NCBI GenBank assembly: GCA_015489405.1
Contig: WFZU01000029.1
Location: 1 to 52,980 of the forward strand
From: Bacteroidales bacterium
GTDB taxonomy: Bacteria; Bacteroidota; Bacteroidia; Bacteroidales; S143-32
Reading direction: 5' to 3'
DNA: 52,980 nucleotides
This document shows, piece after piece, positions 218 through 52,873 of this stretch. The translations under genes and the position numbers were made by a program. Numbering within the stretch: position 1 is the stretch's first letter; the number at the start of each line of letters is the position of its first letter. Below the pieces are notes generated by a model. It searched no databases, was not told the origin of the DNA, and was given only the letters and a program-made list of their open reading frames with translations.

Positions 218-290
218 TCAAATAATTACTATCGCGGCAAAGGTAAATAAATTTTTATTCACCAAAAAAGATAAAAAAAAATCATTTCAC

Positions 291-388
291 AACCAAAGAC
301 TTTACTTTTGTCAATGCGATGTATTGAGCTTGCCGAAATAAAGTTTTGAGTATGAGTATAACGAAGAGTCCGGTAATTATAGAAAGAC
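291..388 (+). repeat. Interspersed palindromic repeat, copy A (right half only)
   Basis: It aligns by eye with the right half of the copies at 34206-34353 and 6864-7045: TTTGTCAATGCGATGTATTGAGCTTGCCGAAATAAAGTTTTGAGTATGAGTATAACG...ATTATAGAAAG. The left arm is missing. Confidence 0.7.
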
Positions 389-1368: not shown

Positions 1369-4300
1369 ATGAAATTCATCAAGACAGTCTTCTTGTTTCT
1401 TCTTTCATTTATCTTTGCCGGACTCCACGCCGGAGGTGTGATAAATCATCATTTATACGTAAAAATCCAACCGGAGACTTCTTCTATCGAAGTCATTGAC
1501 AGCTTGGATTTGAAGGATATGGAATTGCGCGAATTTCTTTTAAACTCCGCTTTTCAAGTAACTACCAAGACCCCGGGCGCGCATTTGACAAAGTTGAAAG
1601 AAAACGTAAAAGCCGGAGACATCGGAATGGATCACGATGCAGACGAGAAAAAAGACGACATTCAATTGACCCGCTGGCAGATCACGGGAAATCCCTCTCT
1701 CATTGTGCTTTCTTACCAAGGAAATATCAAATCCGTAATAGAACAGAGCAAAGCCAATTATCAGCGCGGCTTCGCCGAATCGTCGGGAATCATCAGCGAC
1801 ATTGGCATTTATTTAGCCGGTTCCACCTATTGGGTGCCGCAGTTTGACGGCGTTTTGTCCAAATTTGTACTTACGACCGAACTTCCTTCTCAATGGAAAA
1901 CCGTTTCGCAAGGGAAGCGTATTTTTGAAAAATCCGGAGACAAGCATATTGATACTTGGAAATGCGATAAACCGCAAGAAGAAATTTTCCTGATAGGAGC
2001 TAAATTTTATGAATATTCCTATCAAATGAACAACGGTATTCTCGCTATGGCATTTTTGCGGAGCGATGATGAGGCTTTGGCAAACAAATATTTGGAAGTA
2101 ACCGAGCAATATATGGATATGTATCAAGGATTATTGGGAAATTATCCTTATTCGAAATTTGCCTTGGTAGAAAATTTTTGGGAGACCGGCTACGGGATGC
2201 CTTCGTTCACTTTGCTGGGTGAAAAGATTATCCGTTTCCCGTTTATTTTATATTCTTCCTACCCGCACGAGCTACTGCATAACTGGTGGGGAAACAGTGT
2301 ATATGTGGATTTTGACGCCGGCAATTGGTGCGAAGGCACCACGGCTTTTATGGCAGATCATCTGATCAAGGAGCAACGGGGTGCCGGCGAAGAATACCGC
2401 CGTTCCATTCTCCAAAAATTCAGCAATTTTGTAAATCCCGGAAATGATTTTCCATTGTCGGAGTTCGTCTCCCGCCACGACGGTCCGAGCGAGGCTATCG
2501 GTTACGGCAAAGCACTGATGATGTGGCAGATGTTGCGTAGAAAATTGGGAGACCAAACTTTTGTCGAGGGAATGCGGAAATTTTATCAAAAGAATATTTT
2601 TCATTTTGCCTCTTATGACGATATCCGCCGGGCAATGGAAGAAGTGTCCGGAGAAGACTTGCAGGCATTCTTTGCCCAATGGGTTAAACGGAAAGGGGCA
2701 CCCGAACTGGCTATTGAGCGGCTCGTCCAAGAAAAATACGGAAACAACTACCGGATCAGGATTAGCCTGAAACAAGTGCAAGAGCAAGCCGTGTTTGATT
2801 TGGATATTCCTATCGGGATTGCTACGCAAAAGGGTACGCTAACGAAAGTGGTCAATATGAACCGGCGGCAACAGGAATTTCAGCTGTTTCTGAAAGACAA
2901 ACCGCTTAAAGTAGTCGTGGACCCGCAATATGATGTATTCCGGATATTAAATCCCGCCGAAGTGCCTCCTACTTTGAGTAAAATATGGGGCAGCGAAGAA
3001 AATGTGTTTATTCTCCCTTCCCAAGCAAGCAAAAGCCGCAAAAAAGCCTATCGCAATTTTGCAGAAAAATGGAAAGAGGCTGATAATGACCATTTCACTA
3101 TCGTTTTTGACAATGAGATTACACAACTTCCTTCGGAAAAAACGGCTTGGGTACTGGGTTTTGAAAATCGCTTTGCCTCTGCTTTCCGAGAAAGCCTGAA
3201 AGGCTATCATGCCGGATATAGTGAAGATTCGGTTTATTTCGGAAAGCAATCTTTGGCGAAAAAGAACACAGCTTTTGTTTATACACTCTTCAAAAAGAAT
3301 GACATACGGAAGCAAGATATTTTCATTGCTTTTGACAATACAAATGCGATAGCCGGTCTGATTCGCAAACTGCCGCACTACGGGAAATACAGCTATCTGG
3401 CTTTCACCGGAGACGAGCCGGTCAATGTAGCAAAGGGGGAATGGGCAGTGGTCAATTCTCCTTTGGTACGTGTTTTGGACGAAAAGGGAAGCAAGATGAG
3501 TGTAAGGGAAAAACGTGCACCCTTAGCTGAACTGAAGCCGGTATTTTCGAAAAAGAAAATGATGAATACCATCAAATTTCTGGCTTCGCCGGAATTGAAA
3601 GGTCGAGGCTTGGGAACGCCGGAATTGGAAAAGGCAACAACATATATCGAAGAAAGATTTAAGGAGGCGGGGCTACATCCTCCCGGAGAGAATTACCGGC
3701 AGACTTTTACCCACGTCTTTGATGACAAGGGGAAGATGACGCTGACCAATGTCGTAGGCTATATTCCGGGAAACGACCCGGAGTTGAAAAATGATGTCGT
3801 AGTCTTGTCCGCTCACTATGACCACCTTGGTTTGGGGTGGCCTGATGTACATCAAGGAGATGAAGGGAAGATACATCCCGGGGCGGATGACAATGCGAGC
3901 GGGGTGGCTATTTTATTGGAATTGGCGCGCACGATGGGCAAAACCGTCAAACCCAAACGCACTATCGTCTTTCTTGCTTGTACGGGAGAGGAAGCCGGAT
4001 TGATTGGCTCCCGCTATTTTGTAAAACATTTCAAAGACTATTTCAAGGGGGAGATTTTTGCAGACCTCAATATCGATACGGATGGAAGTTTGTTTGATAA
4101 GAAATTGATGGTGCTTAACGCCAATACTGCCAAAGAATGGAAATATATTTTCATGGGTACCGATTATACGACCGGAGTCCGCTCGGAAGTCATATCGCAG
4201 GATCTGGATGCCAGTGATCAGGTTGCTTTCATTGAAAAACAAATACCTGCGGTACAATTATTTACGGGTGCTACCCCAAACTATCACCGTCCTACGGATA

Positions 4301-4791: not shown

Positions 4792-6867
4792 ATGAAAAAA
4801 ACGATGTTGATAATGTTGCTCGCAAGTATCATTATGTATTCTTGCGGTTCGCAACCGGTAAAAAAAGAGAAAAAAGAAATGGAAAAAGAAACGAAGGTGA
4901 AAGTGGATACATTTACGTATTTGGTTGAACAGTTTGCCGACCTTAAAATCATGCGTTATAAGGTGGACGGATTTAAACAATTGCCCCTGCAAGAGAAAAA
5001 GCTTATTTACTATTTAAGTCAAGCGGCTCTCAGCGGAAGGGATATTATCTGGGACCAAAATTATAAATATAATCTATTGATACGCAGGAGTCTGGAAGCG
5101 ATATACAAAAATTTTGAAGGAGACAGAAATACGGATGAGTTTAAGGCTTTTGAGAAATATCTCAAACAAGTTTGGTTTGCCAACGGCATTCACCACCACT
5201 ATTCGATGGATAAATTTCAGCCGGATTTTACCCCGGAATATTTTAGCAAACTTATTGCGGCTTCGCCGGAAGCGCATTTTCCCGAATTGAAAGGATACAA
5301 TAAGGCTTCGCTCATTCAAAAACTGACTTCGCTTATTTTTGATCCGGAGATTGCTCCGAAACGTTTGAGCCTGGACAATAGTAAGGATATGATAAAGGCT
5401 TCGGCTTGTAATTTTTATGAAAATGTAAGCCAAAAAGAGGCGGAAGCTTTTTATGACAAAGTAAAACAAAAGGTGGATAAAGAGCATCCCATCGCCTACG
5501 GTTTAAATTCCAAACTGGTGAAGGAGAAGGGGCATATCGTGGAAAAGATCTACAAAGTGGACGGTATGTATTCGGCGGCAATCGAGAAAATTATTTTCTG
5601 GTTGAAAAAGGCGGAAAATGTAGCCGTCAATGATTTGCAGCGTAAACACATCCGGAAACTTATTGAATTTTATGAAACCGGCGATTTGAAAACATTTGAC
5701 GATTACAGCATATTGTGGGCGGAAGATACGATTTCGAATGTAGATTTTGTTAACGGCTTTATCGAAACTTATGGCGACCCGCTGGGACTCAAAGGCAGCT
5801 GGGAATCCTTGGTAAACTTTAAGAATATGGAGGCTACCCACCGTGCGGAAATTATCAGTGAGAATGCGCAATGGTTTGAAGATCATTCTCCGGTAGATAA
5901 ACGTTTCAAGAAAGCAAAAGTGAAAGGTGTTTCCGCCAAAGTGATTACTGCGGCACAATTGGGGGGAGATACCTATCCTTCCACTCCCATCGGAGTCAAT
6001 CTTCCCAATTCGGACTGGATACGCAAAGAGCATGGCAGCAAGTCCGTAAGTCTGGAAAATATTGTGGAAGCCTACGACAAAGCCTCCGAAAGCAGCGGTT
6101 TCAAAGAAGAGTTCTACTATTCTCAGACCGAAATTGAACGGGCAAAGAAATACGGTTCTTTAGCCGACAAATTGCACACGGATTTGCACGAAATATTGGG
6201 GCACGGTTCGGGGCAATTGTTAGCGGGAACGAGTCCGGATGCGCTCAAAAACTACTCTTCCACCCTCGAAGAAGCCCGTGCAGACTTATTTGCGCTGTAT
6301 TATCTGGCAGATAAAAAGATGCAAGATTTGGGGCTCGTAGATAGTGATGATTTGGCGAAAGCCGAATATTATTCCTATATTCTGAATGGTCTGATGACTC
6401 AACTCAAACGCATTGAGCCGGGCAAAGACATCGAAGAAGCCCACATGCGCAATCGTCAGCTTATCGCCAAATGGGTCTTTGAGAAAGGTGCGAAGGATAA
6501 GGTTATCGAATGGGTCAAAAAGGATGGCAAAACCTTCATCAAAGTCAATGACTACGGAAAATTGCGTGAACTTTTCGGAAAACTTCTGGCAGAAGTTCAA
6601 CGGATAAAATCCGAAGGAGATTTTGCCGCCGGTAAAGAATTGGTTGAAAAGTATGGTGTCAAAGTGAACCCGCAACTGCACAAGGAGGTCTTGGAGCGTT
6701 TCAATAAGCTGCATATTGCTCCTTACGGCGGTTTTATCAATCCGGTTTATAAAGCGGTAGAAAAAGACGGAAAAATCATCGATGTGAAGATTGAATATCC
6801 GATGGATTTTGCAAAACAGAATTTGTACTATTCGGAACATTATTCCTTTTTGCCTACAATCAATTAG
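4792..6867 (+). CDS. Dipeptidyl-peptidase III family (M49) zinc peptidase, lipoprotein-like signal
   Basis: Both M49 signature motifs are present: HEILGH (HExxGH) and EEARAD (EExxAE/D). The N-terminal signal has Cys (IIMYSCGS). The TAG stop at 6865-6867 lies inside the terminus of the adjacent repeat. Confidence 0.85.
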   Translation: MKKTMLIMLLASIIMYSCGSQPVKKEKKEMEKETKVKVDTFTYLVEQFADLKIMRYKVDGFKQLPLQEKKLIYYLSQAALSGRDIIWDQNYKYNLLIRRSLEAIYKNFEGDRNTDEFKAFEKYLKQVWFANGIHHHYSMDKFQPDFTPEYFSKLIAASPEAHFPELKGYNKASLIQKLTSLIFDPEIAPKRLSLDNSKDMIKASACNFYENVSQKEAEAFYDKVKQKVDKEHPIAYGLNSKLVKEKGHIVEKIYKVDGMYSAAIEKIIFWLKKAENVAVNDLQRKHIRKLIEFYETGDLKTFDDYSILWAEDTISNVDFVNGFIETYGDPLGLKGSWESLVNFKNMEATHRAEIISENAQWFEDHSPVDKRFKKAKVKGVSAKVITAAQLGGDTYPSTPIGVNLPNSDWIRKEHGSKSVSLENIVEAYDKASESSGFKEEFYYSQTEIERAKKYGSLADKLHTDLHEILGHGSGQLLAGTSPDALKNYSSTLEEARADLFALYYLADKKMQDLGLVDSDDLAKAEYYSYILNGLMTQLKRIEPGKDIEEAHMRNRQLIAKWVFEKGAKDKVIEWVKKDGKTFIKVNDYGKLRELFGKLLAEVQRIKSEGDFAAGKELVEKYGVKVNPQLHKEVLERFNKLHIAPYGGFINPVYKAVEKDGKIIDVKIEYPMDFAKQNLYYSEHYSFLPTIN

Positions 6868-7045
6868 CGCGTGTCCATAAAGGTAAGAATCTGATCCGGA
6901 ATGTTCAAGAACAAGCCTGTCTACCGTATGTACAGGCAAGGCTTGCGAAATGCCCAAAATCAAGGAGTTGACTTCTGTCAATGTGTTACATTGAGCTTGC
7001 CGAAATGAAGTTTTGAGTATGAGCGTAACAATTTATTGGACATTA
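6864..7045 (+). repeat. Interspersed palindromic repeat, copy B (full core, right terminus truncated)
   Basis: TTAGCGCGTGTCCATAAAG...TTCAAGAACAAG...CAAGGAGTTGACTTCTGTCAATGTGTTACATTGAGCTTGCCGAAATGAAGTTTTGAGTATGAGCGTAAC...TTATTGGACATTA. The core is near-identical to the copy at 52549-52708. It carries a small internal hairpin insert, CCTGTCTACCGTATGTACAGG. Confidence 0.85.
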
Positions 7046-7057
7046 GGCGGATGTTGT

Positions 7058-16797: not shown

Positions 16798-16864
16798 GGG
16801 GAAAATATGCTAAAACAAAGATTTGTCAAAACAGGAAGAATCGTCTATAAACCACTATTCCGGG

Positions 16865-17050
16865 GCTGTCTATAATGTCCAATAATTTCGTTACGCTCAT
16901 GCTCAAAACTTCATTTCGGCAAGCTCAATGTAACACATTGACAAAGGTCAACTCCTTGGTTTTGAGCATTTCGCAAGCCCTGCTTGTGCTTACGGCAGAC
17001 GAGCTTGTTCTTAAACATCCTAACTCAGACGCTTAACTTTATGGAGAAGC
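16865..17050 (-). repeat. Interspersed palindromic repeat, copy C (full length, inverted orientation)
   Basis: GCTGTCTATAATGTCCAATAA...GTTACGCTCATGCTCAAAACTTCATTTCGGCAAGCTCAATGTAACACATTGACAAAGGTCAACTCCTTGGTTTTGAGC...CTTTATGGAGAAGC is the reverse complement of the copy B/F1 consensus. Confidence 0.85.
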
Positions 17051-17277
17051 TCTAATCATATTATCATGTCTATGCTTACGTTTTTTTGATTGAAGAATCA
17101 GGAACACCGGTTGACGATTTTAGATTCTTTTTGCGAAAGTGTATTTCTAATATCGCTGTTCGTTATTCATTATTAGTCCTGTTATACTTATTAATTCGCT
17201 GAAATACAAGGTAATATGTATCTATTATTGTACAATTGAATAATGTTTCCCCCGGCAAATAGAGATAGTCTAATTTT

Positions 17278-28781: not shown

Positions 28782-28859
28782 CTGTCTATAATGTCCAATA
28801 AAACCTTACACTCCTGCTCAACGTAACACATTGACGGGAAGAAACTTTGTTCTGAAAAC
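28782..28859 (-). repeat. Interspersed palindromic repeat, copy D (short deletion variant, inverted)
   Basis: CTGTCTATAATGTCCAATAAAACCTTACACTCCTGCTCAACGTAACACATTGAC...TTTGTTCTGAAAACT. It shares the terminus and the GTAACACATTGAC core but lacks the GCCGAAAT segment. It abuts the stop codon of the TonB-dependent receptor. Confidence 0.65.
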
Positions 28860-33420: not shown

Positions 33421-33679
33421 ACAACTAATTTTTTAAATTTCTATTTAATTCCTACTTCGTTCTCTAATCACATTTTTACGTGTATTCGCCGGCGAAAATT
33501 CCGGAGCAAAAATATCACCTATCCAACATTACGGTAGCTTATCATCCGAGAATCCCCGGAGGCAAATCTTCACAAACTACACACGCCCATAAAATCAATA
33601 AAAAAACTCACAAGGCAAACAAAATAAAACGCTAAGAGCATCCAATTTCAACTTTTCACCCGAAAGTTTTGAAATTTAC

Positions 33680-33845
33680 ACTTCTGGCAGGTCTTCTGAC
33701 TTTCCTCGATGTTGCCGGTGCCTTCCCATCCTCTATTCCGGACAGTGGCGTGGAAAACAACACTTTTTATACGAGGTACACAGCAGCGGGTACTGTTGCC
33801 GATTTTCACGGCATTCCCATTTTAAGCAGCATGCACCAAAAATGT
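33680..33845 (-). promoter_or_regulatory. Cobalamin (B12) riboswitch
   Basis: The minus strand reads GGTGCATGCTGCTTAAAATGGGAATGCCGTGAAAATCGGCAACAGTACCCGCTGCTGT...CACGCCACTGTCCGGAATAGAGGATGGGAAGGCACCGG...GAAAGTCAGAAGACCTGCCAG. These are the conserved AAnnGGGAA, GTGAAAATC, CCCGC-GCTGT, B12-box GCCACTG...GGGAAGGC and AGTCAGnAGACCTGCC elements of the cobalamin riboswitch, in the right order and spacing. Confidence 0.9.
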
Positions 33846-33849
33846 ACGG

Positions 33850-33857
33850 CAAAAGTA
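33850..33857 (-). promoter_or_regulatory. Candidate -7 promoter box (TACTTTTG) driving the riboswitch operon
   Basis: The reverse complement of CAAAAGTA matches TAnnTTTG and lies immediately upstream of the riboswitch 5' end. Confidence 0.5.
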
Positions 33858-33942: not shown

Positions 33943-34209
33943 ATGGAAATACAAAACACCGGGAAGTTCCGGCTGATCATCGAAGGAGAAGAAGCCGTAT
34001 GTGAATATTACTTCAAGGATCATCAAACTATGGTTTTCCCTCACACCTTCGTGCCTCCGGCGCATCGAGGCAGAGGAATTGCATCGAAATTGATAAAGGC
34101 GGCAATGGAATTTGCCAAAGCAAATAACTTCGTTATCGTTCCCCTCTGTTCCGCCGTAGTAGCCTATGTCCAACGGCATCCCGAATATCAAATTTTGTTG
34201 AAAAAATAG
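33943..34209 (+). CDS. Small GNAT-family N-acetyltransferase (YjdJ-like, 88 aa)
   Basis: HTFVPPAHRGRGIASKLIKAAMEFAKANNFVIVPLCSAV matches the acetyl-CoA binding R-x-x-G-x-G/A motif and the single-domain YjdJ-type architecture. The stop codon TAG lies inside the terminus of repeat copy E. Confidence 0.75.
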   Translation: MEIQNTGKFRLIIEGEEAVCEYYFKDHQTMVFPHTFVPPAHRGRGIASKLIKAAMEFAKANNFVIVPLCSAVVAYVQRHPEYQILLKK

Positions 34210-34353
34210 AGCTTGTCTATAATGTTCAAGAACAAGGCTTACGAAATACTCAAAACCAAGGAGTTGACATTTGTCAATGCGATGTATTGAGCCCGCCGAA
34301 ATAAGGTTTTGAGTATGAGCGTAACGCAGAAGTCGGACACTATAGACAAGCTC
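34206..34353 (+). repeat. Interspersed palindromic repeat, copy E (compact complete copy)
   Basis: Terminal inverted repeats are GAGCTTGTCTATAATG and CACTATAGACAAGCTC. The internal inverted repeat is TACTCAAAACC / GGTTTTGAGTA. There is a central TTGAC-ATT-TGTCAA palindrome and the core ATGCGATGTATTGAGCCCGCCGAAATAAGG. Confidence 0.9.
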
Positions 34354-34445
34354 AAAATAAGCATCTGTGTTTATTTTGCCGGTGCTATAATATTTTGCCA
34401 AAAACGGCGTTGAAGAGATAGTAAAATATAATTCGGACTATTATT

Positions 34446-52260: not shown

Positions 52261-52548
52261 CGTATTTCTAACTTTTGTTGTTTTACATTAGTCGTCTGTA
52301 CCGGGCTCACCTTACAATCACCTGCCGTGGCAAAGATCCAAAGGCTTCATTGTTACCATAACCTTCAGGAACTTCTTTCAGCAAGCCCGTATGGCTGACC
52401 GCAGACTCAGACCACTTACTCGATTTATAAGGGAAGAAACGGGGGGTAGCACTTCGATTGCAAACAAAAGGAAAAGCCACCCCTAATCACTTGCCCTGCG
52501 AAAGCAAGACAAGCATGCCGGGAAAAAGTTGCATGCAGAATATTTAGT

Positions 52549-52708
52549 GCCTGTCCATAAAGTCGGGAGTCTAGGCTGGAATATTCAAGAACAAGGCTTG
52601 CGAAATACTCAAAATCAAGGAGTTGACTTCTGTCAATGTGTTACATTGAGCTTGCCGAAATGAAGTTTTGAATATAAGCGTAACGAAGTTATTGGATATT
52701 ATAGACAG
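52549..52708 (+). repeat. Interspersed palindromic repeat, copy F1 (full length)
   Basis: GCCTGTCCATAAAG...TTCAAGAACAAGGCTTGCGAAATACTCAAAATCAAGGAGTTGACTTCTGTCAATGTGTTACATTGAGCTTGCCGAAATGAAGTTTTGAATATAAGCGTAACG...TTATTGGATATTATAGACAG. Confidence 0.9.
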
Positions 52709-52718
52709 ACTCTATTTA

Positions 52719-52859
52719 GAGCTTGTCTATAATGTCCGACTTCTGCGTTACGCTCGTTCTGAAACCAGTCATTGACGTAAGTCAACTCCTTTGCTTTCAG
52801 AACTTCACAAGCCTTGAATTCGAACATTATAGCTCAAGCTCTTGACTTTATGGACAGAC
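52719..52859 (-). repeat. Interspersed palindromic repeat, copy F2 (short-core variant, inverted, head-to-head with F1)
   Basis: GAGCTTGTCTATAATGTCCGACTTCTGCGTTACGCTC is the reverse complement of the right end of copy E. The sequence ends ...GAACATTATAGCTCAAGCTCTTGACTTTATGGACAG. It lacks the GCCGAAAT core segment. Confidence 0.8.
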
Positions 52860-52873
52860 ACTATTTACAGCTT

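Follow-up and report, generated by a model that had tools for sequence, protein, structure and literature searches.

A Bacteroidales MITE family with a conserved hairpin core, very probably mobilized in trans by an ISNCY-type transposase

The DNA analysed here (the window) is a stretch of 52,980 nt that constitutes contig C29 of a 2.50-Mb draft assembly of a Bacteroidales bacterium (genome G000; 302 contigs, 42.5% G+C). The locus of interest contains a cobalamin riboswitch (RF00174, 93.8 bits) at 33669-33855 (-), which lies on the opposite strand just upstream of a short intergenic repeat; a small ORF (33943-34209) stands between the two. This ORF ends exactly where the repeat begins: its TAG stop codon (34207-34209) is composed of the last TA of an AAAATA hexamer and the first G of the element. 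Counted with its terminal TA dinucleotides, the element occupies 34207-34355 (+). The same AAAATA recurs directly beyond its right end, a target-site duplication that the first-pass annotation of this sequence had overlooked.

That annotation had listed seven copies of the repeat, and the family proved to be real: repeat finding, MAFFT alignment, nhmmer, and a covariance model (R1) recovered the copies, which amount to five full or near-full ones and two fragments (Table 1). All seven listed copies were retrieved; the one at 28782-28859, however, is merely a decayed remnant that nhmmer misses at E <= 1e-3.

Table 1. The repeat copies of the window and the target hexamers of the copy beside the riboswitch
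Feature	Position	Strand	Remarks
MITE body (G...C), the copy beside the riboswitch	34209-34353	+	126+24-nt variant without the outer left repeat; covariance model R1 79 bits, E = 7e-15
Left target copy AAAATA of this MITE	34203-34208	.	
Right target copy AAAATA of this MITE	34354-34359	.	6/6 identical to the left copy
196-nt-class copy, both internal inserts	6865-7050	+	nhmmer, alignment, covariance model
Full 196-nt-class copy	16861-17055	-	nhmmer E = 6e-64
171-nt-class copy (body only)	52547-52712	+	nhmmer, covariance model
147-nt-class copy (body only)	52719-52861	-	R1 167 bits, E = 2e-33; with ends about 52717-52863
Truncated copy, right half only (model positions 91-192)	287-388	+	nhmmer E = 1e-20
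Degenerate remnant; retains a right end (GGACATTATAGACAGA) and some of the 24-nt insert	28782-28859	-	31-33-nt inverted matches at 81-82%, alignment

The other complete or nearly complete copies differ in how well their borders have been preserved. The span of the first 196-nt-class copy varies with the method (about 6864-7050; 6892-7051 (+) by the covariance model); its right end has decayed beyond GGACATTA, its left hexamer is CAATTA (6861-6866), and the TAG at its terminus (6865-6867) serves the upstream ORF 4792-6867 as stop codon. The second, which the covariance model places at 16860-17024 (-), is flanked by the hexamers TGATTA and GGAATA, alike in four of six positions. The 171-nt-class copy (about 52545-52712 with its ends; 52548-52712 (+) by the covariance model) is bounded by TATTTA at 52541-52546 and 52713-52718, and the latter hexamer is also the junction through which it is stacked upon the inverted 147-nt-class copy. 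A third TATTTA follows at 52862-52867, and this pair of elements (52547-52861) is thus joined and flanked by three identical hexamers.

The basic unit of the family, represented by about 100 paired copies, is 147 nt long. In the 171-nt class, GTCAAT is followed by an insert of 24 nt (GCGATGCATTGAGCTTGCCGAAAA); the 196-nt class has, besides this, a 25-nt hairpin insert; and a 126-nt class lacks the outer left repeat and begins at the inner, degenerate copy of that repeat. Hence there are not two length classes, as had been supposed, but four (126, 147, 171, and 196 nt), generated by one left-end deletion and two internal inserts. The terminal inverted repeats noted in the first-pass annotation were confirmed as an 18-nt sequence, TAGWGYYTGTCYATAAWG, with about 1,100 anchors genome-wide. 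The left arm bears this end motif twice in tandem (the inner version degenerate) and the right arm once, and in 104 sequences the helix formed by the ends shows 93% pairing. The core of the basic unit is a central hairpin of about 50 nt, whose internal ACTCAAAAYC/GRTTTTGAGT stem and apical TTGAC/GTCAA stem likewise stand as originally described. What does not stand is the belief that the core is better conserved than the arms: the claim came from seven copies, and genome-wide the ends are the best conserved part (majority-base frequency 0.90-0.92 versus 0.86 in the core). Two core variants, ACTCAAAAC/GTTTTGAGT and TTCTGAAAG/GTTTCAGAA, coexist in the genome together with chimeras between them. 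The element had been judged to be devoid of coding capacity, and indeed no reading frame is conserved across the order. An encoded peptide was considered and rejected, since paired indels disrupt the open 37-codon frame of the consensus in roughly half of the 30 genomes compared.

The family extends far beyond the window and far beyond chance. The 2.5-Mb genome contains 305-320 nhmmer matches, of which 246 are at least 120 nt long, and together they account for 43.5 kb or 1.7% of the assembly. Of the 604 contig ends, 96 have a copy no more than 200 nt away, and many matches break contigs. Some contig ends overlap with small differences (C132/C152, C29 end/C184, C34/C124, and C27/C87), and the assembly therefore mixes closely related strains. 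Core-less mini copies of about 63 nt that retain both ends were also encountered (C74:5049, C196:282, C263:615, and on C243 and C159); they are rare relative to the roughly 250 core-bearing copies.

The element sits in a TAWWTA hexamer that is present on both sides, so that the flanks read TA-NN-TA next to the G...C body; TAATTA, TATTTA, and TAAATA are the favoured hexamers. The central NN agrees between left and right in 53 of the 95 isolated copies; when the right flanks were shuffled 2000 times, the average was 13.7 and no trial exceeded 28. Where both flanks are TANNTA with a non-palindromic NN, 15 are direct repeats and one is inverted. In an independent set of 94 elements from about 45 other genomes, 69 have one and the same hexamer left and right, and 80 the same NN. 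At least the central two bases are thus duplicated; the outer TA pairs, conserved left and right alike, may belong either to the duplication or to the element, and 2, 4, or 6 duplicated bases would all fit the sequence.

Insertion into a TAWWTA hexamer would leave one copy of the hexamer on each side of the element. Each insertion would in this way recreate its own target, and later insertions could land there and build up arrays with one hexamer between neighbours. Exactly one hexamer is in fact found in 41 of the 52 junctions between neighbouring copies. The strain-variant contigs that overlap at one locus provide a further view of the process: C132 has two units and C152 has one, and besides this whole MITE unit a 24-nt insert and 8 nt of flank distinguish the contigs. 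A paralogous (not orthologous) sequence on C27 has the uninterrupted site CCT-TAGCTA-TGG. Sites of one kind thus occur with no unit, with one, and with two, which is consistent with the addition of one body plus one hexamer by each insertion and with reuse of the hexamer so recreated. The orthologue of the window's gene at 4792-6867 in the congener G001 ends in ...ATCAATTAA without the element, at a place where the downstream synteny differs; this ending is compatible with such a mode of insertion. A short AT-rich repeat (GGCATAAAATTTTCAGCA...TGGTTAAAATTTTTAACGC; C27:7519-7640 and C132:5560-5600) that occurs in at least two places is itself a host of MITE insertions, and on C27 it is fused to the truncated left arm of a MITE.

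These features bear directly on the classification of the family, which the first-pass annotation had called both MITE-like and REP/BIME-like. The former label is apt: the copies have inverted ends and a duplicated target, and they are non-coding and highly multi-copy. The latter would require a REP/BIME or REPIN type of repeat moved by a RAYT (Y1 HUH) transposase, or else a hairpin element of the IS200/IS605 type. Such an origin could be suggested by the ability of the whole unit to fold as one long hairpin, by ends that carry a TAG reminiscent of the REP GTAG, and by the abundance and intergenic location of the copies. HUH transposases, however, make no target-site duplication, and here there is a clear one on both sides; no Y1 (RAYT-type) transposase was found in the genome, where the profile PF01797 has no match, but this profile does have matches in 14 of 20 genomes that lack the element; and the orientation of the copies is not significantly linked to GC skew. 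We consider a REP-like or IS200-like origin to be extremely improbable. The resemblance that remains is a general one, in that REP/BIME and REPIN-RAYT systems also consist of abundant, hairpin-forming, intergenic palindromic units that are enriched after genes. But REPs are 20-40 nt long, are not accompanied by a target duplication, and depend on a single-copy Y1 transposase, and none of these three descriptions applies to this MITE.

The window's own genome did not reveal an autonomous partner for the MITE. Among ends paired at distances of 400-4000 nt and among orphan ends, no transposase was found between MITE ends in that genome; these configurations proved to be ordinary genes flanked by two MITEs, truncated copies, or the 63-nt mini copies. 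The same was true of the closed genome G295, where all 14 apparently solo ends belong to MITEs with a diverged partner end and no coding element lies between ends, and of 526 kb of public contigs surrounding copies, which contained no coding element between MITE ends. Two end pairs about 1.16 kb apart in these public contigs enclose an NAD-kinase gene and a glycosyltransferase gene and were dismissed as fortuitous. One locus of the genome (L175) does contain an N-terminally truncated IS4/IS1634-like DDE transposase gene and an adjoining RhuM-family gene (C288:297-1616 (-) and 1875-2879 (+)), and the TAG stop of the former is supplied by a MITE end. As a partner this gene was rejected: it has homologues in just 3 of 41 genomes, and the intact homologue (in G186) has no matching ends.

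In the related genomes G305 and G111, however, an element was found that encodes a transposase and has the MITE's own ends; the first-pass annotation had proposed a search for such a partner. A search with the NCBIfam profile NF033593 (transpos_ISNCY_1) of 21 MITE-bearing and 20 MITE-free genomes gave matches above the cut-off in only three of the 41, all of them MITE-bearing (G305, G128, and G111). One copy in G305 (L199) has the structure TAATTA|GTGTCTGTCTATTAAC...ACTTTATAGACAGACAC|TAATTA; a second (L198), with the same ends, lies between TAAGTA hexamers, and two stacked MITEs follow it; and the copy in G111 (L180), whose terminal 22 nt form a perfect inverted repeat (ATTAATTAGTGTCTGTCCATAA), is inserted at the stop codon of the gene upstream of it. 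This insertion sequence (IS) is about 1.65 kb long. Its ORFs (443-452 aa) reach 332-351 bits against NF033593, for which the cut-off is 325; they also match DDE_Tnp_1 and, more weakly, the IS5 and IS1182 models. Its transposase is a DDE enzyme of the ISNCY family. The IS and the MITE share a terminal inverted repeat of 17-22 nt (TAGTGTCTGTCYATAA...), a flanking duplication (TAATTA/TAAGTA for the IS), and the habit of landing on stop codons (L180). Unlike the IS, the MITE has no transposase gene, and it has a second, inner end repeat in its left arm and the conserved hairpin core. Nothing is common to the two beyond the 17-22 nt of each end, and since the core has no counterpart in the IS, the MITE is no simple deletion derivative of it.

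From the identity of ends and target, we infer that the MITE family is very probably moved in trans by the DDE transposase of this 1.65-kb ISNCY element, an enzyme related to those of IS5 and IS1182. A rival source would be an IS630/Tc1-mariner-type element with a TA duplication, as in Correia or RUP elements. The TA in the flanks would be accounted for in this manner, and the MITE's end, TA-GTGYYTGTCCATAAAG, resembles Tc1-type ends. Yet the duplicated bases extend beyond TA to include the central NN; the profile PF13358 (DDE_3) has no match in the window's genome or in five of the six other MITE-bearing genomes tested, and its single match (in G025) has no matching ends; and the ISNCY element, with ends that match exactly, exists. 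An IS630/Tc1-type parentage therefore has hardly any claim on our belief.

The ISNCY transposase as the source of mobility leaves the window's genome in an ambiguous position. It contains no NF033593 match (the best tblastn hit has E = 0.05), and a repeated sequence of 1.65 kb would probably fall below its smallest contig of roughly 2 kb; its copies are either orphaned or served by an unassembled copy of the IS. The closed genome G295 has about 45 MITE copies and no NF033593 gene, and thus the presence of the MITE is not tied to that of the IS. A second ISNCY-type IS (L178; G305:C1:41222-42514 and six more copies) was noticed in the course of this work; it encodes a 511-aa transposase and has the ends TAGTGCCAGCCAGAAAAC between TATATA hexamers. 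It has the terminal TAGTG and the type of target in common with the MITE's partner and differs from it in the rest of the end sequence.

The position of the copies relative to genes was examined with a crude ORF caller (1854 ORFs, 88% coding). An overlap of more than 60 nt with an ORF occurs in just 8 of 214 clusters of copies. Clusters are over-represented between convergent genes (32 in 241 gaps) by comparison with tandem genes (63 in 1128) and divergent ones (9 in 183). The earlier impression that copies always lie 3' of a gene thus reflects a strong bias but not a rule, as 9 of the 104 placed clusters are located between divergent genes. The contact with the upstream gene is frequently intimate: in 35 of 77 cases its stop codon is formed by the terminal TA and the first G of the element, and in 10 further cases the outer hexamer supplies it with its first TAA. 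The corresponding count for other genomes is 37 of 52. This arrangement follows from the choice of target, because TAWWTA often overlaps TAA and TAG stop codons and the element itself begins with a G, and hence many copies come to lie exactly on a stop codon and leave the protein unchanged. Such a self-recreating, stop-overlapping target explains both the stop codons apparently supplied by repeats and the head-to-tail or head-to-head arrays in the window, and it makes the family a clean example of a transposon target with these two properties.

There is also a preferred orientation. The strand that runs in the same direction as the IS transposase gene is antisense to the upstream gene in 56 of the 77 cases here (56:21, p = 8e-5), and the same bias recurs in other genomes (37 of 52; 37:15, p = 0.003). 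The orientation of the hexamer itself does not account for this bias, and an effect of the replicating strand was set aside, the association with GC skew being not significant (p = 0.15).

The second feature of the family that calls for explanation is the preservation of its core. In a set of 104 distinct sequences, its central helix of 9 bp and apical helix of 6 bp show 97-98% pairing. The first-pass annotation had raised the question of structural covariation, and the central hairpin is indeed kept by two-sided changes: in about 45 genomes these affect all nine pairs of one helix and five of the six of the other (14 of 15 in all). The covariation score was never reached in 500 shuffles, and slid controls drop to 33-50% pairing; the alignment scored was fitted to the model, and the same swaps are plain in the MAFFT alignment and in the raw sequences. 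Neither the conservation of the core nor the orientation bias is explained by transposition alone. The two-sided changes and the bias lend real weight to the suspicion, voiced in the first-pass annotation, that the structure is selected; a protein-binding site, an effect on RNA stability, a terminator, and an sRNA are the candidate functions.

Could the element then be primarily an RNA? It might be a structured RNA selected by the host, or a cis-acting 3' UTR module (a stabiliser, a processing site, or an insulator), for which the transposon ends are a mere vehicle. Such a role would be in keeping with the nearly invariant pairing of the central helices, the two-sided changes and the failure of any shuffle to match their score, and with an orientation bias that appears independently here and in other genomes. 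The two strands also fold unequally as RNA (-41.6 kcal/mol for the strand that is usually antisense versus -32.9 kcal/mol for the other), and G-U pairs outnumber A-C pairs in the core (23:11) but not in the ends (47:51), an excess that is suggestive and not significant. On the other hand, it is the more stable strand that is usually antisense to the upstream gene; the copies correspond to no Rfam family; they are without terminator-like or promoter-like features, a simple scan of them having found no terminator and no sigma-70-type promoter (Bacteroidota promoters lie outside the scan's model); and compensatory change in a palindrome has other possible sources, namely templated repair and selection, in the course of transposition, for a single-stranded or cruciform DNA form. 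We therefore judge a host-selected RNA to be unlikely, although it is a more credible proposition than either of the alternative transposon types discussed above.

Within the framework of a MITE moved by the ISNCY transposase, the core of roughly 50 nt may perhaps be more than passenger DNA. Our tentative suggestion, to which we attach distinctly less than even weight, is that it is a selected, strand-aware module that the MITE lineage needs for its spread or for its tolerance by the host. This could take either of two forms. In the first, a single-stranded or cruciform DNA fold would bring together, in one transposase complex, the two ends of a 147-bp element that is too short to loop. In the second, the fold would act in the 3' UTR of the upstream gene, where it could render the insert harmless in transcripts and one orientation would be better tolerated. 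If the core is indeed selected, this would explain why the IS does without it, why core-less mini copies are rare, and why the fold and the orientation bias have both been kept across dozens of genera. With its conserved hairpin and biased orientation, the family offers an opportunity to test what allows very short transposons to move or to be tolerated.

The kind of element described here is in itself ordinary and well known; what is added is an unusually well-kept hairpin. One analogy is with the Correia elements (CREE/NEMIS) of Neisseria, which are 100-160 nt long, have inverted ends, and are present in hundreds of copies that make up about 2% of a small genome. The two families are alike in size, inverted ends, and copy number in a small genome, in having length classes that differ by internal segments, in their potential to form a hairpin over the whole length, and in their location between genes and in transcripts. 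Correia elements have a TA duplication and 26-nt ends, as well as promoter, IHF-site, and RNase III features, and are not known to have a cognate transposase. This MITE differs in its 6-nt TAWWTA target, in the sequence of its ends, and in the existence of a cognate IS.

The family is widely dispersed in the order. With the covariance model R1, full-length relatives were detected in 95 of 401 sampled genomes, belonging to 71 of 236 genera; the first relatives recognized, in three other families, had the same 146-nt layout, TAATTA flanks, and compensatory changes. In a pattern scan that included the genomes of named species, the carriers were almost all MAGs of uncultured Bacteroidales or Bacteroidota from environmental samples. 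Full-length copies were also seen on contigs of MAGs labelled Caldiserica and Chitinophaga pinensis (L075 on PXBT01000109.1; L071 and L122 on CAMBDK01...), which could reflect mis-binning, mislabelling, or transfer beyond the Bacteroidales. Rfam 15 gave the cobalamin riboswitch as its sole match in the window and only chance-level miRNA matches in the copies; plasmid and phage records contained no blastn match to the element; and a search of the open full-text literature for the end sequences returned unrelated primers only. By these measures the family seems to be undescribed. The MITEs of Porphyromonas gingivalis (MITE239 and BrickBuilt/MITE464; PMC2575886, PMC5771137) are likewise non-autonomous and belong to the same order; neither paper was among the matches of the full-text search for the ends of the present element.

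The link between an orphan MITE family spread over an order and a transposase of ISNCY type closes a gap for a group of insertion sequences that is poorly characterised. There is a practical aspect as well: at 1.7% of the genome and near about one contig end in six, the family is a source of fragmentation in Bacteroidales MAGs, in which it also produces spurious small ORFs. A second conserved non-coding sequence of the genome, TTTACCTTTGC...TTATTATGAGGGTAGGTGGCGGACAACAAAATATCCGGGTCAAGGAGC, was observed behind a Bacteroidota-type TAnnTTTG box (C120:~2073, C123:~16294, and C288:~1690-1790); it may represent a common promoter and leader, or a small RNA.
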